64,000 nucleotides of DNA from Methanomassiliicoccales archaeon (GTDB lineage: Archaea > Thermoplasmatota > Thermoplasmata > Methanomassiliicoccales > UBA472): NCBI GenBank assembly GCA_026394375.1, contig JAPKYJ010000013.1, forward strand, positions 2,089 through 66,088, written 5' to 3'. Positions within the stretch are counted from its first letter, which is position 1, and each line of letters starts with the position of its first letter. The notes under the pieces are model-generated. The model saw only the letters and a list, made by a program, of their open reading frames with translations. It ran no database searches and was not told the DNA's origin. Of the stretch, positions 2,630-25,762 are shown piece by piece. The translations under genes and the position numbers were made by a program.

Positions 2630-4203
2630 GCGAGAAGCGTATCGGCGTCTTCATCTGCGAATCTGCGGGCGGAAGCGAGGGATCGCTGGACCTGCGCTCC
2701 CTGGGCAAGCACGTCTCATCCTTGCCAGAGGTCTCGTTCGTTCGCTTCATCGATCAGGTGTGCAAGGAGACTGGTCAGGCCCAGATGCTGCAGGCGTTGA
2801 ATAAGGACGAGGTCGATCGTTTCGTCGTCGCCGCTTGTTCGCCTCTGAGCAAGGAGCGAATGCTGATGCGGTTGGCGGCCGAGGCCGGACTGAACCCTTT
2901 CATGTTCACCATCGCGAACGTCCGCGAGCAGAGCGCCTTCGTTCATTCGAAAGCAGGGGCCGACCTGAAAGCAAAGAGGTTGCTGAGGATGGCCGTGGAG
3001 AAGTGCCGCCTGCTCGCACCAGCGCCTTACGATGTCAGGATCCCTGATAGCAGGACGGTGCTCGTCGTCGGGGACGGCCTGAGGGCGGCCTTGGCGGCGG
3101 AGGATCTGCGAGCCCTCGACCTCGAGGTCATGATACTGGTGGAAGAAGGCATGCTGCGATTGCCTCGCTTTCTCGATCCCACGCTAGCCGAGGCGTTGAA
3201 GCGCAGCGAGGAGGGTTCTCCGATCATATCCGGGCACTTGGCATCACTGGATGGGGTTCCAGGAGCATTCGATGTGCTCACAGAAGGAAAGACCTCCGGA
3301 GCGGTCAGATGCGGTGCGGTGATCATAGCGTTCGATCCTTTGCCCGCGAAGCTCGAAGAAGGTATCATGGGCCCGATGCATTTCGAGGAGCTCATGGCCG
3401 GCGGAGCGCGGCTGCCTCTTTCCCTTGTGATCGTGGTCGACGATTGGAAATCGGAGTTCCACTCACCTCAGGCCATGGAATGGGCCATGCGAACGGCGGT
3501 AGCGGTGCGAACAAGGTCGCCCGAGTCCTCGGTGCGCATCCTTTGTAGGGACATCTCCTCGAGGGGCGAGCTGGAATCGGAACAGCTTCGAGCGCAACGC
3601 CATGGAACAATCTTCATGAGAACGGAACGAGCGCCCACTGTCACCCCCGGAGAAAGAGCGATCGTCAGAACGGTCGACCCCATCGTCGGAGAGCTGGCCC
3701 TGGATGCGGACGCAGTGATTCTGGTTGGTTCAGATCTGAACGCGGGAAGCGCGAGCACCTGTTTCGTTCTTGGGTTGGCGATGCGTCCCGACGGCATGCC
3801 TCGAGAATCGAAGGTAAGGCTGCGCGCTGGGGAGAGTCTGCGGGCCGGGATCTACGTCATCGATCCATGGAGCGAGTGGAGCAGTGGGGACGTCCGATTG
3901 GATTGTGCGGCCGTTGCGGCCAGAGCGGCCGCCCTCCTGCTTTCTCCGGGGATCGAAGAGGGCGGTGCGGTGGCCCAGGTCGAGGCAGGCAAGTGCTCGG
4001 CCTGCCTGAGCTGCGTGCGCATCTGTCCCTATGGTGCACCATACGTCACGGACGAGGGCAAGGCAGAGGTCAGATACGAGCTGTGCCAGGGCTGCGGGAT
4101 GTGCGTGACCTCCTGCCCCGGCAAGGCCATCGACATGCATTGCTACTCCGACGCCCAGATAGCTGCGGAAGGGAAGGCGGCGCTCAAGGAGCCACGTCCA
4201 TGA
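2626..4203 (+). CDS. hdrA: HdrA-like protein, C-terminal part with a 2x[4Fe-4S] ferredoxin domain
   Basis: Contains IGVFICES...DRFVVAACSP (HdrA-type domain), a degenerate second Rossmann segment VLVVGDGLRAALAA, and C-terminal CSACLSCVRICP / CQGCGMCVTSCP ferredoxin motifs. It is translationally coupled on both sides. Confidence 0.75.
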   Translation: MSEKRIGVFICESAGGSEGSLDLRSLGKHVSSLPEVSFVRFIDQVCKETGQAQMLQALNKDEVDRFVVAACSPLSKERMLMRLAAEAGLNPFMFTIANVREQSAFVHSKAGADLKAKRLLRMAVEKCRLLAPAPYDVRIPDSRTVLVVGDGLRAALAAEDLRALDLEVMILVEEGMLRLPRFLDPTLAEALKRSEEGSPIISGHLASLDGVPGAFDVLTEGKTSGAVRCGAVIIAFDPLPAKLEEGIMGPMHFEELMAGGARLPLSLVIVVDDWKSEFHSPQAMEWAMRTAVAVRTRSPESSVRILCRDISSRGELESEQLRAQRHGTIFMRTERAPTVTPGERAIVRTVDPIVGELALDADAVILVGSDLNAGSASTCFVLGLAMRPDGMPRESKVRLRAGESLRAGIYVIDPWSEWSSGDVRLDCAAVAARAAALLLSPGIEEGGAVAQVEAGKCSACLSCVRICPYGAPYVTDEGKAEVRYELCQGCGMCVTSCPGKAIDMHCYSDAQIAAEGKAALKEPRP

Positions 4204-4601
4204 AGATCATCGGCTACGTCTGCTCACACGCCGGCTACGCAGCAGCGGACCTGGCCGGAGAAGAGCGACTGCAATATTCCCCGGACATAATTCTGATCCG
4301 ACTGCCATGTGCCGGTCGGATCGACGTCGTACATTTGCTCAAGGCGTTCCGCGAAGGGGCCGACATGCTCTTCGTGGCGGGATGCCTGGAAGGAAACTGC
4401 CACCATCACTATGGCAATCACGAAGCCAGGAAGCGCGTCGATCAGGCCAAGAGCATCCTGGATGCATTGGGCATGGATGGACGGAGGATAGAGATGTTCT
4501 ACCTTGCCTCCAACCAGGGCTGGAAGTTCAAGGAGATCGCGGATGAGATGATGAGAAGGGCGAGCGAGCTAGGGTCGAACCCACTGGAGGCGAAGGGATG
4601 A
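4200..4601 (+). CDS. mvhD: MvhD/FlpD-like [2Fe-2S] electron-transfer protein
   Basis: Internal ATG at 4200 within track ORF 3867..4601, overlapping the previous stop (ATGA). Sequence MKIIGYVCSHAGY...LPCAGRIDVVHLLKAF..GADMLFVAGCLEGNCHHHYGN is the typical MvhD pattern. Confidence 0.85.
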   Translation: MKIIGYVCSHAGYAAADLAGEERLQYSPDIILIRLPCAGRIDVVHLLKAFREGADMLFVAGCLEGNCHHHYGNHEARKRVDQAKSILDALGMDGRRIEMFYLASNQGWKFKEIADEMMRRASELGSNPLEAKG

Positions 4602-5293
4602 TAATCGGAGAACAGAAGCCGCTCCAGGAGATCTGCGCCATGCTCGAGGGACATCAGCGCATCCTAGTGGCAGGCTGTCGTTCCTGCGTGGCCATTTGCC
4701 TCGCGGGCGGAGAGAAGGAGGTGGGCATCTTGGCGGAGAGCTTGCGCCTGCACTCCGACCTCCGAGGAAGGAATTGGGAGGTGACCGAGTTCACCACGGA
4801 GAGGCAATGCGAGAAAGAGTGGGTGCGTGAGCTCTCCGACCTGGTGGCCAAGAGCGACGCGGTCGTCTCCATCGCTTGCGGGGTTGGGGCGCAAACCATC
4901 CAGGCGCTTTTCCCGGAAGTGAGGGTCCTTCCCGGGCTTAACACTTCGAACATGGGTGCGCCCGAAGAACCGGGCGTTTTCATGGAGAAATGCGGGGGCT
5001 GCGGTGACTGCGTTCTGCATCTGACCGGAGGGATATGTCCCATCGTCCGCTGCGCCAAGAGCCTGCTCAACGGTCCCTGCGGAGGGAGCCAGAACGGCAA
5101 GTGCGAGATCGGTCACGATACGCCCTGTGCCTGGGAGGAGATCTACCACTCGCTCGAGCGCCTTGATCGATTGGACCTGCTGGAGGAGCTGATACCTCCG
5201 AAGAACTGGATGCCCAGCCGTAGCGGCGGACCGAGGAGGATCATCAGGCCGGAGGCGGTCCTGACCAGGGAAGAGAAGGAGATGAGAGGATGA
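4598..5293 (+). CDS. metV: MetV, methylene-THF reductase-associated Cys-rich subunit
   Basis: CGGCGDCVLHLTGGICPIVRCAKSLLNGPCGGSQNGKCE resembles the MTHFR C-terminal-like/MetV family. It lies directly upstream of metF and is coupled to it by an ATGA overlap. Confidence 0.8.
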   Translation: MIIGEQKPLQEICAMLEGHQRILVAGCRSCVAICLAGGEKEVGILAESLRLHSDLRGRNWEVTEFTTERQCEKEWVRELSDLVAKSDAVVSIACGVGAQTIQALFPEVRVLPGLNTSNMGAPEEPGVFMEKCGGCGDCVLHLTGGICPIVRCAKSLLNGPCGGSQNGKCEIGHDTPCAWEEIYHSLERLDRLDLLEELIPPKNWMPSRSGGPRRIIRPEAVLTREEKEMRG

Positions 5294-6210
5294 AGGCGGG
5301 CAGCAACTTGGAGAAGGTGCTTTGCGATGGGAGGTTCGCCGTCACGGCGGAGATCGGGCCGCCCAAGTCCGCCAGCGCCGAGAGCGTCCGTCGACACGCG
5401 AAGGAGATGCGAGGTTGTGCGGACGCCTTCAATCTCACCGACAACCAGATCGCCATGGCCAGGATGTCGTCCATCGCCGCTGCGGTCGTTCTCATCGAGG
5501 AAGGCCTGGAACCGGTCATCCAGATGACCTGTCGGGACAGGAACCGGATCGCCATGCAATCCGATATCCTGGGGGCATCGGCGTTGGGCATTAAGAACGT
5601 GCTTTGCATCAGCGGCGACCATCAAACCTTCGGTAACCAGAAGGAAGCGAAGAACGTGTACGACGTCGACTCCATCCAGGAACTGATGATCCTGCGCAAG
5701 ATGAGGGACGAAGGCCGAGTGTGGAGCGACGAGGAACTGGAAGTAGCTCCAAGACTTTTCCTGGGCGCGGCGGCCAATCCTTTTGCCGATCCATTCGAGT
5801 TCCGGGTCGCCAGGCTGGCAAAGAAGGTGAGGGCGGGAGCGGATTTCGTGCAGACGCAGAGCATCTTCGACATGGAACGCTTCGAAAGGTGGATGGAGCT
5901 CGTTCGGGTCAGGGGGCTGCATGAGGATGTGCATATACTGGCGGGCATCCTGCCGCTGAAATCGCACAGGGTGGCGCTCTACATGAAGAACAAGGTGTCA
6001 GGCATGATCGTTCCCGATGCCATAGTCGAGCGCATGAAGGCGGCCAAGGACCCGAAGGAGGAAGGCATCCGCATCTGCGTAGAGCAGATCGAGCATCTGC
6101 GGAGCATCGAAGGAGTGCATGGCGTGCACATCATGGCGCCCTTGTGGGAAGAGAAGGTGCCAGAGATCGTCCGCAGAGCGAGATTGCGTCCAGATGCTCG
6201 AATCGAGTGA
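5290..6210 (+). CDS. metF: 5,10-methylenetetrahydrofolate reductase
   Basis: 306 aa. Motifs VTAEIGPPK, FNLTDNQ, QMTCRDRNR, ISGDH and FVQTQSIFD are characteristic of MetF-type MTHFR. Confidence 0.9.
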   Translation: MKAGSNLEKVLCDGRFAVTAEIGPPKSASAESVRRHAKEMRGCADAFNLTDNQIAMARMSSIAAAVVLIEEGLEPVIQMTCRDRNRIAMQSDILGASALGIKNVLCISGDHQTFGNQKEAKNVYDVDSIQELMILRKMRDEGRVWSDEELEVAPRLFLGAAANPFADPFEFRVARLAKKVRAGADFVQTQSIFDMERFERWMELVRVRGLHEDVHILAGILPLKSHRVALYMKNKVSGMIVPDAIVERMKAAKDPKEEGIRICVEQIEHLRSIEGVHGVHIMAPLWEEKVPEIVRRARLRPDARIE

Positions 6211-10221: not shown

Positions 10222-10998
10222 TCAAGCGCGCAGGAAATCGTCGCAATAGAGCTTCTGGTTCAGCAGCACTTGTCCGGCCTTGATGGTGCTCATGAGTTCC
10301 TGGTCCTCGGGGTCGCAGATGACGGCGCTCAGGCCTGCGCCCATCAGCATGGCCAGGTAGGTGCGGTTCACCAACGGCCGGTCCTTCGTTCCGTTGGAGA
10401 CGTTGCTCAATCCGACCACCGTTCGAGGGGCAGGTTCGTTCAAGCTCTGGAACATGCGGAGGGCCTCGATGACCTTCAGTCCCTGGTCCTGGGCCGCTTT
10501 CGTCGGCAGGACCAGCGGATCGAGGTATAATCGATCCGGCATGATCTCGTGCTCCATGGCGGTGGTGATCATGAGCATGGCCATCTCCGCGCGCGAGGCA
10601 GCGTCATTGGGGACGCCGCGCTCGTCCATGGTCAAGCAAATGATGTCCGCGTTGTGCTCGCGGGCCAAGGGAAACAGCTTCTCCATCTTCGCTTTCTCCG
10701 CCGTAGTGGAGTTCATGATGGCCCGGTTCCGACAGGCCTTAAGTCCTGCCGTCATGGTCTTGATGCCCGGCGTGTCGATGCTCAGAGGAACGTCGGTCAC
10801 TTCCTGCACGGTCCTTACGAGCCATTCCATCACCGCTGGCCCGTCCTCTCTGCCTGGACCGGTGTTGATGTCCAGTGCTTGCGCTCCCTTGGCGATCTGG
10901 TTCAGCGCATGCTCCTGGATCCATTTCGCGTCCCGCTGGTCGATGGCTTTGGAGACGGAAGAGAAAAGGCCATTGATCCTCTCGCTGATGACGTACAT
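10222..10998 (-). CDS. acsE: methyltetrahydrofolate:corrinoid/iron-sulfur protein methyltransferase (MeTr)
   Basis: From internal ATG 10998, MYVISERINGLFSSVSKAIDQRD...LDINTGP...SIDTPG...NSTTAEK...YLDPLVLP...GLSNVS...LLNQKLYCDDF is colinear with Moorella AcsE as I recall it. The 49-codon track extension up to 11145 has no homologous counterpart. Confidence 0.9.
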   Translation of the reverse strand: MYVISERINGLFSSVSKAIDQRDAKWIQEHALNQIAKGAQALDINTGPGREDGPAVMEWLVRTVQEVTDVPLSIDTPGIKTMTAGLKACRNRAIMNSTTAEKAKMEKLFPLAREHNADIICLTMDERGVPNDAASRAEMAMLMITTAMEHEIMPDRLYLDPLVLPTKAAQDQGLKVIEALRMFQSLNEPAPRTVVGLSNVSNGTKDRPLVNRTYLAMLMGAGLSAVICDPEDQELMSTIKAGQVLLNQKLYCDDFLRA

Positions 10999-11315
10999 GC
11001 TCTTTCCGAGGAAGGTAACGAGCAGCGGACTAAAACGATTGTCCCTCACAAAAGCGCGAGAACAGGAGGAGAAGGCCAAGGGCAAAGGCGCCCTAGGACC
11101 GCGGAAGAACGTTGATTCGAGAACGTCCGAGAGAAGTCTGGCCATGCCTTACTTCTTCTTCGTCGCTTTCTTTTTCTTCGCGCCCGCCACCGACTTACCT
11201 CCATGGAATATACGCGCGAGCCAGCACTTAAACATATCACTCCGATTGCGAAGCGAACGCTTAGAATGGTTTATGTTCAGACGCGCAATATCCTTCCGGC
11301 ATACTGTTCTCAAGT

Positions 11316-15166: not shown

Positions 15167-15199
15167 AAGAGCATTAAGTAATGGCAGAAAAATGCTCTT
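15167..15199. promoter_or_regulatory. perfect 9-bp inverted repeat (candidate operator) bracketing the promoter of the RACo operon
   Basis: AAGAGCATT (15167-15175), a 15-nt spacer containing TAAGTAAT, then AATGCTCTT (15191-15199). It ends 7 nt before ATG 15206. Confidence 0.45.
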
Positions 15200-15205
15200 C
15201 ATCAA

Positions 15206-17071
15206 ATGAAGTTCAAGGTATGCTTCCTTCCCGATCACGTGGTGGCCGAGTTCGTTCGCGGCACCACCGTTCTCGACGCCGCCTCCAAGGCGGGAGTGGA
15301 GATCCAGTCCACCTGCGGCGGAAAGGGGGAGTGCCGCAAGTGCAAGGTGATCGTGGAAGGCGAGGCGGAGATGGCCGCCGACACCAAGCTGGACAAGGAG
15401 CTCATTGAAAAGGGCTATAGGCTCGCTTGTCAGACCTACGTCACCGGGGATATCACCGTTCATGTACCAGAGGAAGCCAGGGTGAAAGAGGGCCAGATAC
15501 TGACCACTCATTCTTCCTTCCGGCCAAAGAAGCTCGAGCCCATGACCCGCGCGCTCGAGTTGCATCTGCCCCACCCGGGCCAAAAAGACAACCTTGGCGA
15601 CCTGGAACGGCTGGCCAGAGCACTAGGCAAGGAAGCGGGTCAACTCCGACCGCCGGTCGATCTGCTGCGTCTTCTCCCCCGCAGGCTAAGAGATCTGGAC
15701 TGGAAGGTGAACGCGCTGCTGGCGGCGGATGATTTGGGCGGGGAGCTGTTGGACATCCTACCCGAAGGAAGCTGCCATCTGGGCGCCGCCCTGGACATCG
15801 GCACGACCACTGTGGTACTTTCTCTGGTGGACCTGGAGAAAGGGGACATCATCTCCACTGCTTCGGACTACAACAAGCAGATGCGCCTGGGTGACGACGT
15901 GATCACGCGCATCTCCTACGCCGAGGAGGGAGGGTTGGAGGAGCTGCGGGAGCAGGTGCTGCAGACGATCAATCAGCTCGTGCTCTCCGCCAGAGCGAAT
16001 GCGCCCAAGCTCGTGGCCGACTGCGACATCTCCGCTCTTTCGGTGGCAGGCAATACTACCATGATACATCTGTTCCTGGGCCTGGAACCGAAGCATATCC
16101 GATATGATCCCTACGTCCCGACGACCAACGTGCCTCCCCTGCTCAGAGGGAAGGACACGGGCCTGGTCATGCACCCAGAGGGTCTGGTGTACTGCATTCC
16201 GGGCAGAGCTAGCTTCGTAGGCGGGGATGTCACGGCGGACGTCATCGCCTCGGGAATGCATGGACGCTCGGAACTCGCCCTGCTCATCGACGTCGGCACC
16301 AACGGCGAGGTCGTGCTCGGCAACCAGGAGTTCTTGGTGGGTTGCTCTACCTCCGCCGGACCGGCGTTCGAAGGCGGCGAGGTGGCCTGCGGCATGCGAG
16401 CCATGAGCGGAGCCATCGAGAAGGTCTGCATAGATGAGGAGCTGGAGACGCAGCTGAGCGTCATCGGGGACGCACAGCCCTTAGGCGTGTGCGGCTCCGG
16501 TCTGATAGACCTCCTGGCGCAGATGTTCCGCTGCGGGCTGGTGGACCGCAAGGGACGCATCCAGGGTGGCAAGTGGCCCCGCGTCAGGCAGACCGAGATA
16601 GGCCCGGAATACGTGGTGGCCTTCGCCGAGCAGGGCAAGGCCAAGAAACGGGAGATTGTCATCCATGAGGACGACATCGCCAACCTCATCCGCACCAAGG
16701 CGGCGCTGTACGCAGGATGCAGCGTGCTGCTCAAGAGCGTGGACAAGGAGTTCTCGCAGCTCGACCGCGTGTACATAGCCGGCGGCTTCGGCAACTACAT
16801 CGGGATCGAGAACGCCATCCTCATCGGACTGCTGCCAGATCTGCCCCGGGACAGATTCGAGTTCATCGGCAACGGAGCATTGGCGGGCGCGGTGCAGACG
16901 CTCCTCTCAGCGGAGAAGAGACTGGAGGCTAGGCAGGTCTATGATGACATGACCTACATCGAGCTGAGCAACTCCCAGCTCTTCTTCAACGAGTTCTCCT
17001 CCGCTTCCTTCTTGCCGCATACGGACCTGGAACGCTTTCCTTCCGTGGCGAGACAGCTAGGGAAGAAGTGA
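15206..17071 (+). CDS. reductive activator of corrinoid Fe-S protein (RACo; 2Fe-2S ferredoxin + ASKHA ATPase, DUF4445)
   Basis: The N-terminus has a plant-type ferredoxin Cys pattern (STCGGKGECRKCKV...LACQT). It is followed by a ~500-aa ASKHA-like body (LDIGTTTVV..., IDVGTNGEV..., AGGFGNYI). Confidence 0.85.
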   Translation: MKFKVCFLPDHVVAEFVRGTTVLDAASKAGVEIQSTCGGKGECRKCKVIVEGEAEMAADTKLDKELIEKGYRLACQTYVTGDITVHVPEEARVKEGQILTTHSSFRPKKLEPMTRALELHLPHPGQKDNLGDLERLARALGKEAGQLRPPVDLLRLLPRRLRDLDWKVNALLAADDLGGELLDILPEGSCHLGAALDIGTTTVVLSLVDLEKGDIISTASDYNKQMRLGDDVITRISYAEEGGLEELREQVLQTINQLVLSARANAPKLVADCDISALSVAGNTTMIHLFLGLEPKHIRYDPYVPTTNVPPLLRGKDTGLVMHPEGLVYCIPGRASFVGGDVTADVIASGMHGRSELALLIDVGTNGEVVLGNQEFLVGCSTSAGPAFEGGEVACGMRAMSGAIEKVCIDEELETQLSVIGDAQPLGVCGSGLIDLLAQMFRCGLVDRKGRIQGGKWPRVRQTEIGPEYVVAFAEQGKAKKREIVIHEDDIANLIRTKAALYAGCSVLLKSVDKEFSQLDRVYIAGGFGNYIGIENAILIGLLPDLPRDRFEFIGNGALAGAVQTLLSAEKRLEARQVYDDMTYIELSNSQLFFNEFSSASFLPHTDLERFPSVARQLGKK

Positions 17072-17160
17072 TCGGTTGCGAGGTCCTAGGAGGGCTTCGC
17101 GGTCCACGTCAGGCAAAATGGCAAAGGCTTTATCAAATGCGAGCGGAATGTGCGGGAAGC

Positions 17161-18189
17161 ATGTCCTGGAACTGCCTGCCGTTGTGCATCGGCTCATTGC
17201 CACATGACGATCCAGCGAAGGCGGTGGACCTGGTCCTCCGGCATCTCAAGCGCATTCCGTACTGGCCGCAGCTTCCTGCCTTGGGGTTCAGGGAGAACAT
17301 GTACGCTCAGTATTCGATCAAGCTGCCCGGCGCCCGCATCGACGAGGAAGGCAAGCGCATCATCGTCGACCTCGCCAACTACGATCCTCATGAGTTCTAC
17401 GAGGCGGTGATCTCGGAGGACCTGGAGCATTTCGCTCTTCCCCGGGAGAGCTTCCACGGACTGCATGAACTGCTATCTCGCCTTATGCCGGAGGAGGCCG
17501 TGGCAATCAAAGGCCAGGTGACCGGACCGGTGAGCCTGGGGCTGCAGGTCTTCGACTTCACGGGCAAATCGGTCATCTATGACGACGCCTACGGCGAGAT
17601 CGTGCGCAAGAACCTCAACCTCATGTTGCGCTGGCAAGAGTCCAAGCTCCGGGAGAAATGCCCCCGGACCATCATGTTCCTGGATGAGCCGTCGCTTTCG
17701 CTGGTCGGCACGCCGTTCGCAGCCATATCCCCCTCTCAGGTCAAGGCCTGGATCGACGAGGTGTTCGAGGGGGCCAAAGGCTGCAAGGGACTGCATTGCT
17801 GCGGCAATACCGATTGGCCGACGGTCCTGGACACGAAGATCGACATCCTGTCTTTCGACGCCTACAGCTACGGTCACACCATCTCCCTCTATCCGGGAGA
17901 AGTGACTTCGTTCCTCGATCGCGGGGGCACCATCGCCTGGGGAATGGTGCCGAACAGCGAGGAGACGTTGAACGCAGAGACGATGGGCTCGTTGCTGGAG
18001 AGATTCGATTCATCCATCGAAAGACTGGTGGCCAAGGGCATCCCCCGGAGTAAGATCGTGGAGAACTCGCTCGTGACCCCTCAGTGCGGCCTAGGCGGGC
18101 TGAGCGAAGAGCTGAGCGAGACGACCGTACGGACGCTGGTCTCCCTTTCGGAGGAGTTCCGCAAGCGCAACGAGCTGGAGGAGGCATGA
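17161..18189 (+). CDS. MetE-like (cobalamin-independent methionine synthase catalytic-domain / URO-D superfamily) methyltransferase
   Basis: GSLPHDDPAKAVDLV...IPYWPQLP, and Zn-ligand-like GLHCCGNTDW and VTPQCGLGG. The track ORF starts at GTG 17068, overlapping the RACo stop. In-frame ATGs at 17137 and 17161 fit the family N-terminus better, so the start is uncertain. Confidence 0.65.
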   Translation: MSWNCLPLCIGSLPHDDPAKAVDLVLRHLKRIPYWPQLPALGFRENMYAQYSIKLPGARIDEEGKRIIVDLANYDPHEFYEAVISEDLEHFALPRESFHGLHELLSRLMPEEAVAIKGQVTGPVSLGLQVFDFTGKSVIYDDAYGEIVRKNLNLMLRWQESKLREKCPRTIMFLDEPSLSLVGTPFAAISPSQVKAWIDEVFEGAKGCKGLHCCGNTDWPTVLDTKIDILSFDAYSYGHTISLYPGEVTSFLDRGGTIAWGMVPNSEETLNAETMGSLLERFDSSIERLVAKGIPRSKIVENSLVTPQCGLGGLSEELSETTVRTLVSLSEEFRKRNELEEA

Positions 18190-18938
18190 GCTTCCGCATC
18201 GCCGTGGCGGGGAAAGGAGGAGTGGGAAAATCCACCTTGGCCGCGCTGCTGGTGCGCGCACTCCATGACCGATCAAAGAAAATCATCATGGCCGTGGACG
18301 CCGATCCGAACTCCAACCTGGGAGAGAAGCTCGGGGTCAAGGTGGAGAAGACCATCGGCGACCTGCGAGAGGAGCTGCTGAAAAAAGCGGACGAACTTCC
18401 TGCTGGTCAAAGCAAGCAAGAGTATGTGCGTTATCAGATGCAGCTTGCCCTGATGGAAGGGGAGGGGTTCGATCTGCTCACCATGGGGCGGCCGGAAGGG
18501 CAGGGATGCTACTGCTACATCAACAACATCCTGCGCACCTTCCTGGACATGGCCATGGACGATTACGAGTACGTGGTCATAGACAACGAGGCGGGCATGG
18601 AGCACCTCTCCCGCCGAACGACCAAGAGCATGGACGTTCTGCTGCTCGTGTCCGATCCGACCAAGGTCGGATTGGAGACGGCGAGGAGGTTGCTGGATCT
18701 GTCGAAGGCCATGGAGATCAAGGTCGGCACCTCGCTTCTTATCGTGAATCGAGCAAAGAAGCCGTTGGACCCAGGGCTGGATGAGCTGATATGCTCTGCG
18801 GGATTCGACCGCGTGGAATTGGTGCCTCAGGACCCAGAAGTGGAACGAGCGGCTTCGATGGGCCAGTCCCTGATCGGCATCGCCCCGGAGAACGCGGTGC
18901 TCAAGCGAGTGGGCGAGATTGCGTGGCTGCTCGTTTGA
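18186..18938 (+). CDS. cooC: CooC/AcsF-type Ni-insertion ATPase
   Basis: Internal ATG 18186 overlaps the previous stop (ATGA). It has the deviant Walker A motif AGKGGVGKST, a DADPNSN segment and the Ni-binding CxC motif (GQGCYCY). Confidence 0.85.
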   Translation: MSFRIAVAGKGGVGKSTLAALLVRALHDRSKKIIMAVDADPNSNLGEKLGVKVEKTIGDLREELLKKADELPAGQSKQEYVRYQMQLALMEGEGFDLLTMGRPEGQGCYCYINNILRTFLDMAMDDYEYVVIDNEAGMEHLSRRTTKSMDVLLLVSDPTKVGLETARRLLDLSKAMEIKVGTSLLIVNRAKKPLDPGLDELICSAGFDRVELVPQDPEVERAASMGQSLIGIAPENAVLKRVGEIAWLLV

Positions 18939-19338
18939 TATCAGGGCGCACGAAATAACTATTATCCAGCTCGGGGCTCTTCATTCGGGATCTGATTTGA
19001 CAGAAGCGAAGTCGGATGCGTCCGTCAGTTTCCGCAAAGGGCTGATCGTCTTCGCAGCGGCTGCGCTCCTTTACGTCATCTTGTTGGCAGGGGAGCTCGT
19101 CTTTTCGGTCTTTCGGGTCTCTGGTGTGATCATCATCTTTTTCTTCGATATGTTGTTGTGGATAGTGGCAACGATATTTATCCTGGGCGCGGTGGCCGAT
19201 GCCATGCGGGCGCGCGGTCAGAAGATAGAAGGTCAGAAAGCATCTTCGCCGTTGGCCGCTTGGTCGCTCCTTGCATTGGATCTCGTCAGCTTCGTTCTGG
19301 TCATGGTCTTCACCTTCACGCCCCGAAGTCTCACATAA
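18919..19338 (+). CDS. hypothetical small membrane protein
   Basis: Three or four hydrophobic segments (LIVFAAAALLYVILLAG, VIIIFFFDMLLWIVATIFILGAV, LLALDLVSFVLVMVF). The start is uncertain (TTG 18919 or TTG near 18996). It lies between the convergent acs operons. Confidence 0.3.
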   Translation: MRGCSFDIRAHEITIIQLGALHSGSDLTEAKSDASVSFRKGLIVFAAAALLYVILLAGELVFSVFRVSGVIIIFFFDMLLWIVATIFILGAVADAMRARGQKIEGQKASSPLAAWSLLALDLVSFVLVMVFTFTPRSLT

Positions 19339-19388: not shown

Positions 19389-20714
19389 CTAGAGCGACTT
19401 CAGGAATCTCGGCAACCCGCTCGATTCCTTAGGCCCTACGATGATCTTGAGCCCGGTCACATCCTGCAGCTTGCCGCTCATGCGCGTGACCATGCCCGGA
19501 ATGACCAGTTCTCCTCTCTTCGTCTTCTGCTTCGCGCCGGATGCTTCCAGCGCCTTGGCCATGCTCTCAGGGGTCAGCTTCCCCGCAGCGAAGGCGGTCA
19601 TCACGCTCAGCCCTTCCGTGTCCACGACCAGCAGCCAGGCTGGCACCTTGCTCTTCTCGATGTCCGCCAGCACGGTGAAATATGTGAGCGAGAAATTGGT
19701 GGTGAAGAGGATGGGCGAGCTCTCGTTAGCATTGTTGACCGGATACACTCCCGGCTTCACCTGGATGGGCACCTGCGGATCGGTGTAGATGTTCTGTCGA
19801 AGCACGAACAGGGGTAAGGCCTGCGCCTCCGTCAGCTCATCGAAGAGCACGATGCTGCCATACTTCATGGTCGCCACCATGCCCATGAGCGTTCCATGCT
19901 GTCCTTCTCCCGCCTGGACCAGTATCGGGTAGCCGAGCCCGCGGAACAGCCGTTTCACGGACACCTTCCTGATGATGGACGACCTTTCCAGCAGCGTCTT
20001 CATGTCCCGGGCGCCGAAATCCAGCACCAGCTCCTCCACGCCGGTAGCCTTGACCTTGGCCACCAGGTCGGCGAGTTCGTTGAGACCTTTCTCTTCGCGT
20101 ACCACCAGGGGGCACTTGAGCTCCTTGGCCACGGCGCTCATGGCCTCATAGTTCTTAATTTCCGCGCCGTGCAGTAGAGGCTTCCTGTCAGCGATCTTCG
20201 ATGCTGCCGCCCTCATCGCTTCTGCGGAGGAAGTGATGAGAACCAGGGGTTCCTCGGTCCTCGAAGCCACCAACTCCGACGCCCGGACGAACTTCTCCCG
20301 GTCACTGGAATCATTGCGCACCGCCAGAGCGTCCAAGCACAGTACCTGGCCCACGCGCTCGAAGCTCATCTTCCTGGCCTTCTCGAGCTTCTGAGCGATC
20401 TCTTCCTGGGAGAGTGAATCGGAGATCACCAGGGCGAACGCCACCGGATGGAAGAACTTCTTCTCGTGGCGATAGAGTTCGGTCTCATCGCCCATCTCGA
20501 TTGTCTTCTTGCCAGTCCCGAACTTGATCATGCGGATGGGCGGCGCGGCGCTGGCGGCGAACTGCGCCTTCGCCTCGTCCGAAAGGAATGGACAATCCTC
20601 CAACTTCGCTTTGGAGTTGGCGATCTGCATGGCGAACGCCAAGCACGTGGGGTAGTTGCATTTGCCACAGTTCTTCTTGGGCAGGAACTTGAAGACCTCG
20701 ATGGCGGTGGGCAT
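19389..20714 (-). CDS. acsC: corrinoid iron-sulfur protein, large subunit
   Basis: The N-terminal [4Fe-4S] motif is KKNCGKCNYPTCLAFAMQIANSKAKLEDCP. Size is 441 aa. It directly abuts the acsD stop (TGAATG). Confidence 0.9.
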   Translation of the reverse strand: MPTAIEVFKFLPKKNCGKCNYPTCLAFAMQIANSKAKLEDCPFLSDEAKAQFAASAAPPIRMIKFGTGKKTIEMGDETELYRHEKKFFHPVAFALVISDSLSQEEIAQKLEKARKMSFERVGQVLCLDALAVRNDSSDREKFVRASELVASRTEEPLVLITSSAEAMRAAASKIADRKPLLHGAEIKNYEAMSAVAKELKCPLVVREEKGLNELADLVAKVKATGVEELVLDFGARDMKTLLERSSIIRKVSVKRLFRGLGYPILVQAGEGQHGTLMGMVATMKYGSIVLFDELTEAQALPLFVLRQNIYTDPQVPIQVKPGVYPVNNANESSPILFTTNFSLTYFTVLADIEKSKVPAWLLVVDTEGLSVMTAFAAGKLTPESMAKALEASGAKQKTKRGELVIPGMVTRMSGKLQDVTGLKIIVGPKESSGLPRFLKSL

Positions 20715-21671
20715 TCACTTCCCTCCGCTCAGCTCGTTGATCGAGTCCTTGAGGATGCGTGCCGCCGCCGGGCTTCGGACGATGAGGATGTCCGCTCCGG
20801 CAAGCAGAGCGGCCAGCCCGGTGGTCGCCTCCCATAGTACGGCTCTATCCCTCAGGCCGTCATGGCCCTCGATCTCCTCTATCGCCTCTTTGGATTTCCA
20901 GGCGACGGAGGTGTCGCAGACCAAGGGCACTTGCAGCATGCCATCGCCCATCAGAGCGGCGATGCGGATCCGTTCCATGACGGAATAGGTGTACTCCAGC
21001 CCCATGCCCAGCGATGCCATGAGCGGGTCGGTGATGATCTGGTCCTTGCGCACGCCGAAGTCGGTGAGCAAGATGTTGATCTGCTTGGCCAGATTGATAT
21101 CTAGATTCGAAAACGAAATGATGTCGTGGTCGTTGGCCATGGCCACGGCGGAAAGGGATTTGTATGCCGATTCCTCGGCGTGTCCGAGCAGTATTCGCTC
21201 CTTGGCGGCCAAGTTCCCGACCGCTTCCATGACCTTGGCGTCCTTCTCCTCGTGACCGCAGCCGTAGACGATAAGGGGGACGTCCACGGCCTCGAGCACC
21301 GCTTTCACGATGTTCGCCGCTTCTTCGGGCGTACGATTCTCTTCCTCCGGACTGGTGGAGTGCAATTTCAGGCACACCAGATCGACGCCGCTGTTCTGCA
21401 CCCACTTGCGCGCCCAGGCGGCCGGATCTTGAACTACGTCCCCGAGTTCATTCGCAACCTGGAGCGGCAGTTCGCCCGGCCGGTCGAGCACTTCGCCTGC
21501 GATGAGAGGCCGGTTGGGCATCTGCGCCTCGTAGGAGAGGAAGGGCATGCCCGCTTCGCCTCCGACTTGGAGAGGGAGTGAGCGCGTTCCGCCCTGCTCC
21601 TTGCTCTTGCCCAGGGCGACCGTGCCTATCCTTCCGCTCCATTTCTCCTTGGGGACCGGAACCTCGACCAT
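20715..21671 (-). CDS. acsD: corrinoid iron-sulfur protein, small subunit
   Basis: TIM-barrel-like sequence ...VDLVCLKLHSTSP...VPLIVYGCGHEEKD...FSNLDINLAKQ... I prefer ATG 21671 (MVEVPVPKEKW), which has GGAG 8 nt upstream and sits 14 nt after the CODH::ACS stop. The track start at 21740 would overlap that gene. Confidence 0.9.
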   Translation of the reverse strand: MVEVPVPKEKWSGRIGTVALGKSKEQGGTRSLPLQVGGEAGMPFLSYEAQMPNRPLIAGEVLDRPGELPLQVANELGDVVQDPAAWARKWVQNSGVDLVCLKLHSTSPEEENRTPEEAANIVKAVLEAVDVPLIVYGCGHEEKDAKVMEAVGNLAAKERILLGHAEESAYKSLSAVAMANDHDIISFSNLDINLAKQINILLTDFGVRKDQIITDPLMASLGMGLEYTYSVMERIRIAALMGDGMLQVPLVCDTSVAWKSKEAIEEIEGHDGLRDRAVLWEATTGLAALLAGADILIVRSPAAARILKDSINELSGGK

Positions 21672-21685
21672 GTTGACATCTCCAA

Positions 21686-24600
21686 TCACTGCAGCAGCGG
21701 AGGCATGCTTAGCGCCGGATGGTGCACCTTCACCATCCACTCCACGAGCCCTTCGGCTTCGGTGGTGATCGTCTCATCGGCGATCTTGTCCACGAAGTCC
21801 GGCACGCCCAGCTCCTCCGCTCTCTTCTTCAAAGCGTCCATTATCTGCGTCTTCAGCTCCTTGGGCATCCAGGCGATGCGCAGGAACCCTCCGTCCGCGG
21901 GGATGAACTTCTTGCTCAGGATGTATTTGCGGCCCACGCCGATGAAACCTGGTGTCTGCTTGCCACCGCCTATGCTTCCGGCCAGGGTGGAGAACTTCAT
22001 GCCCACCGGGGTCATGCCCGGGAACTCTCGGTTCACCAGGACGACCGCCTGGGCATCGGCGGTCATGGCCACGATGACCTCGAAGCAGCCGCAGCTGGTC
22101 ATCGGGTCCTCCATCATGGTGTAGGCGTTGAATCGCTCCAGCTTGTGATGCGAAAGCTCGAAGACGGCCTGGTTGACGCCTTTCCATTGCCCCTTGACGG
22201 CATCGATCACCTCGCCCTTCTCAATGGGCTGATTGGGGCCGGTCGGCGAGATCTCTTTGGCTGCCTTGGCGTCGAGCCAGTTGATTGCTCCGCACAATCC
22301 AAGGCGTTCCGGGGTGATGATGCAGATATGGTCTGGGGCAAATGACTGGCATAAAGAGCAACTGAACGCTACGTCCACCGCCTCGTCCGTCAGCCCGGCC
22401 AGACGCTCGTCCCTGGTCTTGTGCTTGGAGAGTGCCTCGGGAAGAAGGGCATCGATCCTCGCTTGGTCGGTGATGATGGTCACCTGCACCCGGGAGATGA
22501 TGTTACCGAACTCAGCCTTGAGCTTGGTGACAAGGATGTCGCCGAAATGCTGGAAGCGAAGGCCAGCGTGAACGGAGTTCTTGCTGAGACGGACCCAGAT
22601 GGTGTTCCGCTGCCCGGTATGCCACGCCCCCTCGGCGAAGTTGATGAACTGATGGATGCGCCGCTCCAGGACGGACTCGAAGTCCTCCTGCATCTTCTTG
22701 CCGTAGACGTCGACGATGATCGCCAGGGGCGTCTTGCCGCCTTCCGGCATCTCATCCACATCCTTTCCGATGAGGGTGATCTTGCCGTCCTCCACCTGCT
22801 CCTCGGGCAGCATGCGCAGCAGCTCGAAGGCGGTGGTCTTGGCCGCTCCTCTCGCTTCTATGTAGGTGTCCGGCCTGCGTACGGTCTCGCCTTCGAACGC
22901 CGGGCCGTAGGCCACCGGTATCTGGACGGGAGCGAGCTTCACCCGGATGTTGCGCAGCTCGATGGCCGTCTGCACCATCTTGTCGTATTCGGGCTGGGAC
23001 ACGAGCTTGTCTGGGACAGCTTCCACGTCCTGATCGGTTATGATCGGGGAGCCGTTGAGAAGCACCGCAAACCCCACCGCGGCTTTGATGGCGTCTATCG
23101 GTCCCAGCTGCAGCACGAAGACCTTAGGCCTTTTTGCCAGGTACTTCTGCAGACGCTCGCGGTCCCCACGCTGCACGTTGCCGAAGGTCAGGGCCGCCCT
23201 TATGGCGAAATTCAGACCGTGTATGACTTGGGTGAACTCTCCCACGGGACAGAGCATGACGTCCAGTCCTACCTTGACGCCCTCATCCTGAAGCTGGCGG
23301 ATGGTGTCGAAGGAGGCGACGATGAGCATGCCCTTGCTCTGGCAGTCGCGCACGATGCGCACCAGCTTCTTGGGGTCTTCCGCCGTCCCCACCAGAACGG
23401 CGCAGCCAGGGATGGTGTCGTCCACGAAGGCGATGCCCAATCCCCGCAAGACCTTGTCAGGGATGAATCCGCAATACGGCGTGCCCTCGTATGGACGCTC
23501 GTTGCGCGAGTACTTCAGCGCCTCGATGATCTCCGCGGCCACCATGGTCGCTTCCCCGGCCAAGAGCGCGTTCTCTATCGTAGGTTCGTGCTTGATGATG
23601 CCCCTGGCCTTGCTCAGAACTGAGGGCATATCGCCCAGGCGATGCACTTCCTTGCCTTCCCAAGCAAGGATGGCCGGGAGAGCGTACCCGGTCTCGGGGA
23701 ACTCCACCTTCTGATCGTAGCCGAAGCGCTCGATCGCCCGAGAGAGCAGCAGGTTCGCGTAGCCGGTGGCGATGATCGCTCCATCGATGGCCATCTGGCA
23801 GAGTCGATCCTTCTCGAGCCTAGGTCCGGATTGTACCTCATAAGAGTTGGACCACTTCATTTTCCAGCGACGCCGCTCCATCTCGTTGAGCAGCTTCTTT
23901 CCTGCCTCGGTCGGATCGGGCTCGTAGATGAACTTCCCACCGAAGACGTCGCCAGCGGTGTTCGTCAGCACCTCCACCACTAGGGGCGACCCGCAAATGT
24001 AGTTGACCATGCCGACATGCACTCCCAGACCGAATGCCACGCACCACGTGCCTAAGGAGACGGCCCTCTCGTGATTCGCTTCCGGGACCGAAACCACGAA
24101 AGGAATGCTGTCCACGTCCACCCTCAGGTGATTGGCTATCTCCGTAGCCAGGTTCATGGCCCGGGTGTTGTCCATGCAAGAGCCCATGTGCCAGACCGGA
24201 GGCAGGGGAACGCCGTTCGCATTCTCCAGGTCGCGGATGAACTTCTTCAGCCCCGGTCCAGCATGCTTCTCCGTTGCCTCGCTAGATAGGAATCCGTTCT
24301 CAGCGAAAGCGCCTGCCGAGCAGCCGGTGGTCAGGACCAGAACATCATTTCTCAGTAGCTCTTTGGCGATGGTGATGTGGCTCGGATCCTGCTCCGTTCT
24401 CTGGTTGTTGCACCCGGACATGAGGGCGATGCCTCTGATCTGCCCTTTCTGCAGGGCATCGATGAGGCACATCATCGGGTCCTCGGGCACGATGCGCGCG
24501 AGGAGCGCCTCGATCTGCTCCAGGCTGAAACCGGTGATTACCTCTGACTTGACGTTTGGAATGTGAACCTTGGAAGGGTCGCGGCGCTTGTAGGCCTCGA

Positions 24601-25762
24601 TGGCCATTCCGACGATGGCCTGGGCGGATTCCTCCGCATCCTCTTCGCGGAATTGGACGTGGGTGTCGTGGGGGATGTGCACGTTGATCATGGTGGTGAC
24701 CACGTCGGTGTGCACGCACTGGCATATCTCCGCCAGGGAAGGCATGATGCACTGGTGGTCTGCGACCAGAAGATCGACCGCTCCCGTGGCCAGGGCCAGC
24801 TCCTGGGAAGCGAAGTTGGCGGCCATGCTCACCCCCTTCCTCATGAGCCTCTCATTGCCTGTGCAACCAATGCCGACGATGTTGATGCCCTTGGCCCCTG
24901 CCTCTCTGGCCTCTTCCTCCATCTTGAGGGCCACGTCCACCATCACCTCGCTCAGGACGGGATTGTGGTCGTGGATGGCGATGTTCACCTCGTCCGCCTT
25001 AGGAGTGCCCAGATCGGCGAAGGTGCGTACCAGATGCGGGGTGCCGAAGAGTATGTCCGAGAGATCAGTAGAGATCTGCATGCCGTCGTAGTCGGCGATG
25101 GCGCATGCCACTCCGGCGAAGATGAGCGAGACGGGATTGGCATCGCAGCCGAGCGAAGTGCGGTGCATGACGTCCGAGATGGCGTGGTCGATGTTGTTCG
25201 GCAATAGGCCATGCTCCTCCAGTAGCCTGCGACGGCGGGCAGTGATGGTGGAAGTGGTGAACTTGAGCGGCTCGGCGCCGAAACGTGCATAGTCGGAGAT
25301 CGCTTCCTCGGTGACCAGGCGCGCCAGCTCATCCTTCCCCTTGCCTGATGGATCGATGCTCAATCGCTTGGCCAACCGTTCAAGCTTGGTCTGGTCATTG
25401 ACCGAGTAAGAGGGAACGCTTCCCTGGATGACCTTGAGCAGAGTCTCGGCGATGTGCCTGCCATGGCCGGAGTGCACCGCCGCTCCCCCAGCGATATGGC
25501 GGACGAGGTTCCACGCGACGATGGTGTAGTCCCTGGCTCCGCAGATTCCCTGATTGGGCCTTCCCTGGAAGGCACTGATGCGGCACGGCCCCTGGAGGCA
25601 ATTGTTGCAGCACACGCCCAGCTCGCCGAAGCCACATTGCGGCTGCATGGCCTCGTAGCGGTCCCGGACGGTGGCAATGTGTTGCTGGGAAGCGATTTCG
25701 ATGCCCTGCTTGGCGCCGGGATCGCTCGTCTTTTCCTTATTGACCTTGCCGTTGGGTTCCAT
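21686..25762 (-). CDS. acsAB: fused Ni-CODH (AcsA/CooS-like) :: acetyl-CoA synthase (AcsB-like), 1358 aa
   Basis: The N-terminal half has CGFGELGVCCNNCLQGPC, IHDHNP, GIGCTGNE, DHQC, SGCNNQ, TGCSAG and MGSCMDN. The C-terminal half is colinear with bacterial AcsB, including SCSLCQSFAPDHICIITPERLGLCG and the A-cluster motif SCGCFEV. It is a single uninterrupted frame. Confidence 0.9.
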   Translation of the reverse strand: MEPNGKVNKEKTSDPGAKQGIEIASQQHIATVRDRYEAMQPQCGFGELGVCCNNCLQGPCRISAFQGRPNQGICGARDYTIVAWNLVRHIAGGAAVHSGHGRHIAETLLKVIQGSVPSYSVNDQTKLERLAKRLSIDPSGKGKDELARLVTEEAISDYARFGAEPLKFTTSTITARRRRLLEEHGLLPNNIDHAISDVMHRTSLGCDANPVSLIFAGVACAIADYDGMQISTDLSDILFGTPHLVRTFADLGTPKADEVNIAIHDHNPVLSEVMVDVALKMEEEAREAGAKGINIVGIGCTGNERLMRKGVSMAANFASQELALATGAVDLLVADHQCIMPSLAEICQCVHTDVVTTMINVHIPHDTHVQFREEDAEESAQAIVGMAIEAYKRRDPSKVHIPNVKSEVITGFSLEQIEALLARIVPEDPMMCLIDALQKGQIRGIALMSGCNNQRTEQDPSHITIAKELLRNDVLVLTTGCSAGAFAENGFLSSEATEKHAGPGLKKFIRDLENANGVPLPPVWHMGSCMDNTRAMNLATEIANHLRVDVDSIPFVVSVPEANHERAVSLGTWCVAFGLGVHVGMVNYICGSPLVVEVLTNTAGDVFGGKFIYEPDPTEAGKKLLNEMERRRWKMKWSNSYEVQSGPRLEKDRLCQMAIDGAIIATGYANLLLSRAIERFGYDQKVEFPETGYALPAILAWEGKEVHRLGDMPSVLSKARGIIKHEPTIENALLAGEATMVAAEIIEALKYSRNERPYEGTPYCGFIPDKVLRGLGIAFVDDTIPGCAVLVGTAEDPKKLVRIVRDCQSKGMLIVASFDTIRQLQDEGVKVGLDVMLCPVGEFTQVIHGLNFAIRAALTFGNVQRGDRERLQKYLAKRPKVFVLQLGPIDAIKAAVGFAVLLNGSPIITDQDVEAVPDKLVSQPEYDKMVQTAIELRNIRVKLAPVQIPVAYGPAFEGETVRRPDTYIEARGAAKTTAFELLRMLPEEQVEDGKITLIGKDVDEMPEGGKTPLAIIVDVYGKKMQEDFESVLERRIHQFINFAEGAWHTGQRNTIWVRLSKNSVHAGLRFQHFGDILVTKLKAEFGNIISRVQVTIITDQARIDALLPEALSKHKTRDERLAGLTDEAVDVAFSCSLCQSFAPDHICIITPERLGLCGAINWLDAKAAKEISPTGPNQPIEKGEVIDAVKGQWKGVNQAVFELSHHKLERFNAYTMMEDPMTSCGCFEVIVAMTADAQAVVLVNREFPGMTPVGMKFSTLAGSIGGGKQTPGFIGVGRKYILSKKFIPADGGFLRIAWMPKELKTQIMDALKKRAEELGVPDFVDKIADETITTEAEGLVEWMVKVHHPALSMPPLLQ

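Follow-up and report, generated by a model that had tools for sequence, protein, structure and literature searches.

A predicted MesB-type methionine synthase encoded between RACo and cooC in a Methanomassiliicoccales archaeon, with the adjacent corrinoid iron-sulfur protein as its probable methyl donor

The window analysed here, a stretch of 64,000 nucleotides from a methanogen of the order Methanomassiliicoccales (genome 99.8% complete), carries a gene predicted to encode a methionine synthase of the MesB type, and we consider it probable that this enzyme takes its methyl group from the corrinoid iron-sulfur protein (CFeSP, AcsCD), whose genes lie next to it. The computed evidence consists of orthology, intact active-site residues, fold, single copy, and co-occurrence and synteny with acsCD; on this reading CFeSP would be the physiological donor and RACo, the activator of CFeSP, would have a role in the cycle. 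The finding holds but lacks novelty, because the MesB family has already been described and CFeSP already proposed as its donor. Both Deobald et al. 2020 (PMC7005905, Fig. 6c) and Price et al. 2021 (PMC7857596, Figs 2-3) depict a branch leading from methyl-CoFeSP to homocysteine, and the latter named the Methanomassiliicoccales as MesB-only. A first, sequence-only reading of this DNA had described the branch point as one not normally drawn in acs clusters, an implied novelty that these two papers anticipate; the RACo-mesB-cooC gene order is the sole point absent from both. Many strict anaerobes that possess the Wood-Ljungdahl pathway rely on MesB for methionine, and therefore for SAM; should CFeSP truly be the donor, cellular methylation would be supplied directly by the methyl branch of the pathway.

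Gene content of the locus

The features on which the analysis rests are as follows.

10222..11145, minus strand: acsE-like methyl-THF:CFeSP methyltransferase, pterin-binding (Pfam Pterin_bind, 1e-22)
15206..17071, plus strand: RACo/AcsV (Pfam Fer2, RACo_linker, Raco_middle, RACo_C_ter)
17072..17160, no strand: spacer of 89 nt from the RACo stop to the probable mesB start (sequence reading and orthologue N-termini)
17161..18189, plus strand: mesB, predicted core (folate-domain-less) zinc-dependent methionine synthase, 342 aa (D. mccartyi core-MetE similarity, zinc ligands, AF2, Foldseek)
18186..18938, plus strand: cooC/acsF-type nickel-insertion ATPase (CooC1 match, P-loop, CxC motif)
19389..20714, minus strand: acsC, CFeSP large subunit (Pfam CdhD 2e-99 and FeS domain)
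20715..21740, minus strand: acsD, CFeSP small subunit (Pfam CdhD 1.6e-42)
21686..25762, minus strand: fused CODH/acetyl-CoA synthase gene, 1358 aa (Pfam Prismane, CODH_A_N, CdhC, ACS_CODH_B_C)

RACo, mesB and cooC are thus the three co-directional open reading frames that the sequence-only reading had described, and they run convergent to acsC, acsD and the fused CODH/ACS gene. The identity it gave to the first is borne out by all four Pfam domains, each above threshold (E 1e-14 to 7e-96), with NCBIfam AcsV at 600 bits, under its cut-off of 800 bits; the product is predicted to be the ATP-dependent reductive activator of CFeSP, with a 2Fe-2S ferredoxin domain and an ASKHA ATPase. The third protein, read as a CooC with an intact CxC motif, has a C-Y-C motif and the deviant Walker A P-loop GKGGVGKS in its translation, and among PDB entries it matches CooC1 of C. 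hydrogenoformans best (3KJE, E 2e-19). The acsE product could load CFeSP with methyl groups, and acsE is kept upstream in related loci.

The middle gene as a member of the MesB family

The translation of the middle gene contains all the motifs previously listed for it (GLHCCGN, TPQCGLGG and GSLPHDDPAKA...IPYWPQLP). It is 40% identical over 319 aa to the characterised core-MetE of D. mccartyi CBDB1 (cbdbA481) and scores 261 bits against it in BLASTP and 278.7 bits in phmmer; Price et al. 2021 (PMC7857596) place the lower limit of the MesB family at 130 bits in a phmmer comparison with this enzyme. As to the host genome, acsC and acsD are both encoded, 1.2 kb from mesB. The reference enzyme has methylcobalamin:homocysteine methyltransferase activity, backed by genetic evidence from complementation in E. 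coli delta-metE (PMC7005905). The middle protein is therefore a member of the MesB family and an orthologue of the D. mccartyi enzyme, and we predict that it acts as a core methionine synthase, in line with its earlier reading as a MetE-like methyltransferase.

The reference sequence was located through the published cloning primer A481_fw, which has a single exact match among 363 genomes of the order Dehalococcoidales (in G270), and was checked at six published residue positions: the open reading frame at the match has 343 aa, ends in KHGTV as the reverse primer predicts, and carries W69, H122, H215, C217, D236 and C312 (PMC7005905, PMC7857596). A search with A481_fw in the GTDB family of locus L033 gave no match, a scan of 100 loci for the residue-numbering fingerprint found no protein with W69, and a homologue search from a Dehalococcoidales relative returned metagenomic proteins only and no named D. 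mccartyi entry. The 80 best mesB loci form essentially two clades, with no outgroup.

General profiles say little about this protein. Pfam gave no family at E <= 1, neither Meth_synt_2 (PF01717) nor URO-D (PF01208), and Meth_synt_2 detects 8/70 relatives (best E 2.5e-5); the family is strongly divergent from MetE, and Meth_synt_2 therefore misses the middle protein. The archaeal methylcobalamin:homocysteine methyltransferase MesA (NF002119/PRK00957) and MesD (3RPD) are likewise core methionine synthases and resemble it in size and fold, but the middle protein reaches 25.5 bits (E 6.6e-6) against NF002119, whose cut-off is 258 bits. Moreover, the proposed donor of MesA is MtrA, which is missing from Methanomassiliicoccales, and MesD requires MesX and oxygen (PMC7857596).

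In the host genome mesB is present in one copy and is the sole methionine synthase candidate, as in D. mccartyi, which likewise encodes AcsC and AcsD. Meth_synt_2 gave no match above cut-off and S-methyl_trans none at all; a Meth_synt_2 match at G000:C29:61309-61536 was judged to be noise (15.8 bits, below cut-off). The homocysteine-biosynthesis gene HcyBio is present.

Methyl donor and gene neighbourhood

MesB consists of one (beta/alpha)8 barrel, a homologue of the catalytic C-terminal half of MetE, and is devoid of the folate-binding half. According to the mechanism that we propose, zinc held by His212, Cys214, Asp233 and Cys309 would activate the thiol of homocysteine, positioned by Ser12 and Asp175, and the thiolate would attack the methyl carried on Co(III) by a protein-bound corrinoid, yielding methionine and Co(I). 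The donor would most likely be AcsCD, whose genes lie 1.2 kb downstream on the other strand and which receives its own methyl either from methyl-THF via AcsE or from acetyl-CoA via ACS. RACo, the product of the gene directly upstream of mesB, would reactivate any CFeSP that has been oxidised to Co(II) by bringing it back to Co(I). Assays of MesB have used free methylcobalamin only (D. mccartyi enzyme, Km ~240 uM; PMC7005905); CFeSP as the donor in vivo is what we infer for the host, as the literature does. The metabolic argument made for Dehalococcoides, namely the lack of a route to methyl-THF, does not carry over to the host, because it encodes both AcsE and MetF, which are missing from D. 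mccartyi, and makes methyl-THF.

The distribution of the genes points to CFeSP. Among the 101 genomes of the order, MesB occurs in 67, and full-length AcsC and AcsD are found in exactly those 67; in 62/67, acsC lies on the mesB contig, 0.6-4.9 kb away. RACo-mesB-cooC adjoins acsC, acsD and the CODH/ACS gene in essentially all of the ~20 Methanomassiliicoccales loci, as far as the contigs reach, and the conserved synteny on which the earlier reading depended thus holds throughout the order. All MesB absences come from one family (f7), so that there are few independent loss events and the counts overstate the strength of the co-occurrence. In other groups than Methanomassiliicoccales, mesB usually lies away from acs genes: it is accompanied by SAM-cycle and methionine-salvage genes in D. 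mccartyi, and in Chloroflexota mtnP is near mesB in 49/64 loci, an independent link to methionine. The present locus offers no new principle but a very clean comparative case, and RACo, MesB, AcsCD and AcsE of one organism would make a handy gene set for a biochemical test of the donor.

The main alternative is that the methionine synthase is fed by a methylotrophic corrinoid protein of the MtaC, MtmC, MtbC or MttC type and receives its methyl directly from methanol or methylamines. The host encodes six proteins with a B12-binding domain, one of them in the window (62838-63635), other corrinoid proteins may, as Price et al. speculate, serve some of the MesB/MesC paralogues (PMC7857596), and the acceptance of free methylcobalamin in vitro (PMC7005905) means that donor specificity may be loose. 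Nevertheless, B12-binding corrinoid proteins are present in 101/101 genomes of the order, yet the 34 genomes without CFeSP also lack MesB; MesB therefore tracks CFeSP and not the methylotrophic corrinoid proteins. Given also that the single mesB copy adjoins CFeSP and its activator rather than mta or mtm genes, we regard a methylotrophic donor as rather unlikely.

A bolder version of the CFeSP reading starts from the strict conservation of the RACo-mesB-cooC unit in Methanomassiliicoccales. It makes MesB a fixed client of the machinery that maintains CFeSP, with RACo servicing a dedicated CFeSP-MesB methyl-transfer cycle and CFeSP perhaps also loaded, in these methyl-reducing methanogens, with substrate-derived methyls. 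If so, methionine, and hence all SAM methyls, would branch off before folate; we hold this extension to be improbable.

Active site and fold

The sequence-only reading had noted zinc-site-like motifs of the MetE/URO-D superfamily, and residues and fold both agree with an intact thiol-activating site in an enzyme of the MetE superfamily. The putative zinc ligands H212, C214, D233 and C309 are invariant in 70/70 relatives, and their spacing (H, +2 C, +21 D, +97 C) is the same as that of H215/C217/D236/C312 in cbdbA481. The reference ligands are H641, C643, E665 and C726 of E. coli MetE; the characterised MesB has Asp at the third position, and the same replacement of the MetE Glu (counted as the fourth ligand when MesB is set against MetE) is found here. 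S12 (IGSLP) and D175 (LDEP), each kept in 67/70 relatives, correspond to MetE Ser433 and Asp599, an equivalence assigned by motif rather than by structural superposition. One residue departs from the D. mccartyi enzyme: its His122 (HxxG), the His-on ligand proposed there, is Gln in the host protein and in 55/70 relatives.

A fold search was needed because a PDB sequence search with the middle protein gave noise only, and one with a 70-sequence profile gave noise plus a marginal match to 3RPD (E = 0.06). The AlphaFold (AF2) model is one compact domain (pLDDT 97, pTM 0.94), consistent with a single barrel of 342 aa, against 343 aa in D. mccartyi, with neither an N-terminal folate-binding domain (Meth_synt_1) nor any further Pfam domain. 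The best structural match is MetE (PDB 1T7L, 3BQ5, 4L6H; Foldseek E 4e-9, TM 0.62 on query), and ranks 1 to 24 of the Foldseek search against PDB are taken up by MetE, MesD (3RPD) and 1YPX, a putative B12-independent methionine synthase. MesB and MetE have zinc-thiolate chemistry and the IGS-x-P and DEP substrate motifs in common; unlike MetE, to which it is ~15-19% identical, MesB lacks the N-terminal folate-binding barrel and a Meth_synt_2 match, and takes its methyl from a corrinoid rather than from methyl-THF.

These data also bear on whether the protein might be an MT2-like methylcobamide:thiol methyltransferase whose acceptor is coenzyme M or some other thiol instead of homocysteine. The MT2 enzymes MtaA and MtbA, of the URO-D family, share with MesB the structural superfamily and a zinc-dependent methyl transfer in which a corrinoid protein is the donor and a thiol the acceptor, and one of the 70 relatives has a weak URO-D Pfam match. 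The LHCCGN motif presumably resembles the H-x-C-G motif of MT2 enzymes, and we counted it in favour of such an activity. However, in the fold search MetE stands far above URO-D, which appears at rank 25, the Ser (IGS-x-P) and Asp (DEP) with which MetE binds homocysteine are kept, the host already has four genuine URO-D-type MT2 genes separate from mesB, and the genome minus mesB would be without a methionine synthase. Since the orthologue at 40% identity is, moreover, an experimentally shown methionine synthase (PMC7005905), an MT2-like role appears very unlikely. Of the earlier proposal that methyl groups pass from methyl-CFeSP to homocysteine or another thiol, the homocysteine part is thus supported by orthology, zinc site and synteny, and the other thiol becomes less likely because Ser and Asp are conserved and the four MT2 genes are separate. 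An inactive or regulatory MesB-like protein with a structural role beside CFeSP or RACo, for which the Chloroflexales homologues with lost zinc ligands (PMC7857596) are a precedent, is scarcely credible with all four zinc ligands intact and invariant and both substrate-binding residues in place.

Start of mesB and the spacer behind RACo

Stop/start overlaps had been reported at both ends of the middle gene. The one with cooC stands, as ATGA at 18186-18189 behind GGAGGAGG; the GTGA overlap with RACo at 17068-17071 arises only with the longest GTG open reading frame of the middle gene and is probably an artefact of it. Orthologues of 340-345 aa start at a Met equivalent to 17161 (MSW.., MDW.., MQW..), which is most likely the mesB start judging from these N-termini; in a relative with 97% identity the gene is called from the position equivalent to 17137, the alternative start here, and the GTG at 17068 is probably not used. 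The orthologue N-termini thus leave a gap of 89 nt (or 65 nt, from 17137) after the RACo stop, and related loci have a gap of ~25-130 nt or an inserted gene in this interval. Translational coupling of RACo and mesB is therefore unsupported, while their co-orientation and conserved order are supported. The spacer holds a TATA-like CTTTATCAAA, ~25-34 nt upstream of the ATG at 17161, and might possibly contain an internal promoter.

A putative core methionine synthase between RACo and cooC

The protein encoded between RACo and cooC is nearly invisible to curated libraries when its own sequence is used: Pfam returned no family at E ≤ 1, the NCBIfam model NF002119 (archaeal methionine synthase) scored 25.5 bits (cut-off 258), and a PDB sequence search gave nothing significant. 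Its homologues number thousands, of ~340 aa each; those from Methanomassiliicoccales share 46-74% identity with it, those from Dehalococcoidia and other Chloroflexota 41-48%. Seventy relatives were aligned: H212, C214, D233 and C309 are invariant, while S12 (motif IGS-x-P) and D175 (motif DEP) are conserved in 67 apiece. By motif, we assign the former as the zinc ligands of MetE, the Glu ligand of MetE being replaced by Asp, and the latter as its homocysteine-binding Ser and Asp. The AlphaFold model built with these relatives is confident (pLDDT 97, pTM 0.94). When Foldseek compared it with the PDB, the 24 top places went to MetE, MesD (3RPD, a core synthase) and a putative B12-independent methionine synthase (1YPX), ahead of uroporphyrinogen decarboxylase, which comes only 25th. 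The sequence-only reading had noted zinc-site-like motifs of the MetE/URO-D superfamily; the Meth_synt_2/URO-D profile check proposed with it was negative in Pfam, and the invariant ligands and the MetE-like fold bear the motifs out.

The characterised relative is cbdbA481 of Dehalococcoides mccartyi CBDB1, a 343-aa 'core-MetE' with the zinc ligands His215, Cys217, Asp236 and Cys312, for which methyl transfer from methylcobalamin to homocysteine was shown, E. coli ΔmetE complementation gave genetic evidence, and methyl-CoFeSP was proposed as the real donor (Deobald et al. 2020, PMC7005905). The family was named MesB, with a threshold of 130 phmmer bits, by Price et al. 2021 (PMC7857596). We located the reference ORF through A481_fw, the primer published for its cloning: the stretch of this primer specific to the gene has one exact match in 363 genomes of the Dehalococcoidales order (G270, a single contig of 1.4 Mb). 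This ORF encodes 343 aa, ends in KHGTV as the reverse primer predicts, and carries W69, H122, H215, C217, D236 and C312, matching the published residues. The window protein shares 40% identity with it over 319 residues (261 BLASTP bits; 278.7 phmmer bits), with identical spacing of the zinc ligands; by the published criterion, it is therefore a MesB. The two proteins differ at His122 of the D. mccartyi enzyme (HxxG motif, suggested His-on lower axial ligand), which is Gln119 in the window protein. Since 55 of the 70 family members have Gln at the equivalent position and 13 have His, a His-on ligand there cannot, on this alignment, be a general MesB-family feature.

The three genes and their surroundings

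The source genome is near-complete (1.73 Mb, 99.8% complete) and encodes McrA, and the nearest relatives of the organism are Methanomassiliicoccales. The region holds three co-directional ORFs.

Genes of the trio and of its surroundings (window coordinates)
1556-6210, upstream of the trio: HdrA-like, MvhD, MetV and MetF gene set
10222-11145, upstream of the trio: acsE
15206-17071, +: RACo, complete (Pfam Fer2, RACo_linker, Raco_middle, RACo_C_ter)
17161-18189, +: mesB, from its probable start
18186-18938, +: cooC, CooC-type ATPase (P-loop GKGGVGKS, C-Y-C motif)
19389-20714, convergent to the trio: acsC
20715-21740, convergent to the trio: acsD
21686-25762, convergent to the trio: fused CODH/ACS gene, 1358 aa
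48031-49149, +: URO-D-family (MT2-like) gene
62838-63635, +: B12-binding corrinoid protein gene

The last two belong to the equipment for methylotrophic methanogenesis. The sequence-only description of the trio as coupled RACo, MetE-like and CooC genes was partly confirmed. The four RACo/Fer2 domains uphold the identity of the first product (NCBIfam AcsV model 600 bits, below its 800-bit cut-off), the C-Y-C sequence corresponds to the CxC motif claimed for CooC, which among solved structures matches CooC1 from Carboxydothermus hydrogenoformans best (3KJE, E 2e-19), and the motifs quoted for the middle protein (GLHCCGN, TPQCGLGG, GSLPHDDPAKA...IPYWPQLP) are all read in the middle ORF. Among the two stop/start overlaps claimed, the ATGA of mesB and cooC stands, with GGAGGAGG ahead of it; the GTGA at 17068-17071 arises only when the longest GTG ORF is taken for the middle gene. 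The 340-345-aa orthologues start at a Met equivalent to 17161, a relative with 97% identity has its start called at the equivalent of 17137, and in related loci RACo is separated from the next gene of the trio by a short gap or has an extra gene inserted after it; the RACo-mesB joint is therefore more likely a spacer of 89 nt (or 65 nt) than an overlap.

A TATA-like CTTTATCAAA at 17127-17136 precedes the probable mesB start by ~25-34 nt; it would fit a candidate internal promoter from which mesB-cooC is transcribed without a leader. Ahead of RACo, 15168-15200 holds a perfect inverted repeat with 9-bp arms, AAGAGCATT(15 nt)AATGCTCTT, which ends 5 nt before the start codon and could serve as an operator of the operon. 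Downstream of cooC, the 450-nt gap before acsC contains an ORF of 139 aa (18919-19338, +) that is hydrophobic over long stretches and has no Pfam match; it may encode a small membrane protein or not be a gene.

Linkage of mesB to the CFeSP genes

The synteny with acs genes, by which the sequence-only reading was to be checked, is kept: in essentially all of the ~20 Methanomassiliicoccales loci fetched from species-representative genomes, and up to the end of each contig, RACo-mesB-cooC adjoins acsC/acsD/CODH-ACS in convergent orientation, a methyltransferase gene sometimes breaking the order. MesB occurs in 67 of 101 sampled genomes of the order (all of families f1-f6, 4/38 of f7), a count in which relatives are not independent and the absences all fall in one family, so that few loss events lie behind the pattern. 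The genomes with full-length AcsC/AcsD are these same 67, and mesB and acsC lie 0.6-4.9 kb apart on one contig (median 1.6 kb) in 62 of them, the other five pairs being split by contig ends. As a control, proteins with B12-binding domains, including methanol and methylamine corrinoid proteins, were present in 101/101 genomes. Thus, MesB tracks CFeSP and not corrinoid proteins generally. The f7 genomes lacking acsCD and mesB (e.g. G094, G097, G139) still show one weak partial PF03599 (CdhD) match (E 1e-11 to 1e-18); having no MesB, they may be methionine auxotrophs or use another enzyme. One mesB orthologue of the order (G108:C24:89159-90178) has an in-frame TGA, for which a sequencing error, pseudogene formation or recoding could account.

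In the bacterial neighbourhood set (Chloroflexota loci L017-L080, plus L120), Chloroflexota mesB is not near acs genes and mostly adjoins methionine-salvage genes instead: 49/64 Chloroflexota loci have an mtnP homologue nearby and 38 have an mtnA-like gene; in D. mccartyi, mesB adjoins mtnP and mtnA. By gene context, this is an independent link of mesB to methionine metabolism. Apart from one bacterial locus (L058), mesB is linked to acs genes in the archaeal lineage alone.

The branch had been described as not normally drawn in acs clusters, which does not hold: besides the methyl-CoFeSP donor (PMC7005905), AcsC or AcsD in every MesB-containing proteome, mesB together with acsCD in some methanogens, and the statement that 'the Methanomassiliicoccales have MesB only' are in print (PMC7857596). 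The enzyme family, its proposed donor, its clustering with Wood-Ljungdahl genes and its presence in the order are thereby published, and we rate the earlier finding as real, correctly interpreted and already known. RACo or CooC beside mesB is mentioned in neither paper (PMC7005905, PMC7857596); the conserved RACo-mesB-cooC order is therefore a small addition.

Role and proposed reaction

The window genome has a single mesB, no Meth_synt_2 match above cut-off and no MetH/BHMT-type homocysteine domain; MesB is therefore its only candidate, judged by these searches, for the final step of methionine synthesis. HcyBio, the archaeal homocysteine-biosynthesis gene, is present. Four URO-D-family genes separate from mesB cover the MT2 role, which argues against the middle protein being a coenzyme M methyltransferase.

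For MesB as methionine synthase, the most likely scheme, with chemistry borrowed from MetE and the D. mccartyi enzyme, has AcsCD as donor, a role for CFeSP that we infer from genomics only. Ser12 and Asp175 would bind homocysteine, and a zinc ion on His212, Cys214, Asp233 and Cys309 would activate its thiol; the thiolate would then attack the methyl group carried by the AcsCD corrinoid at Co(III), giving methionine and Co(I)-CFeSP. Remethylation of the latter could draw on methyl-THF through AcsE or on acetyl-CoA through ACS, and Co(II) states would be repaired by RACo.

In several Methanomassiliicoccales, one or two class I SAM-dependent methyltransferase genes (Pfam Methyltransf_11/25/31) lie between RACo and mesB (locus L002:8243-9952, with gaps of 1.5-1.8 kb likewise in L003, L007, L009 and L036), which puts a SAM user beside the methionine synthase.
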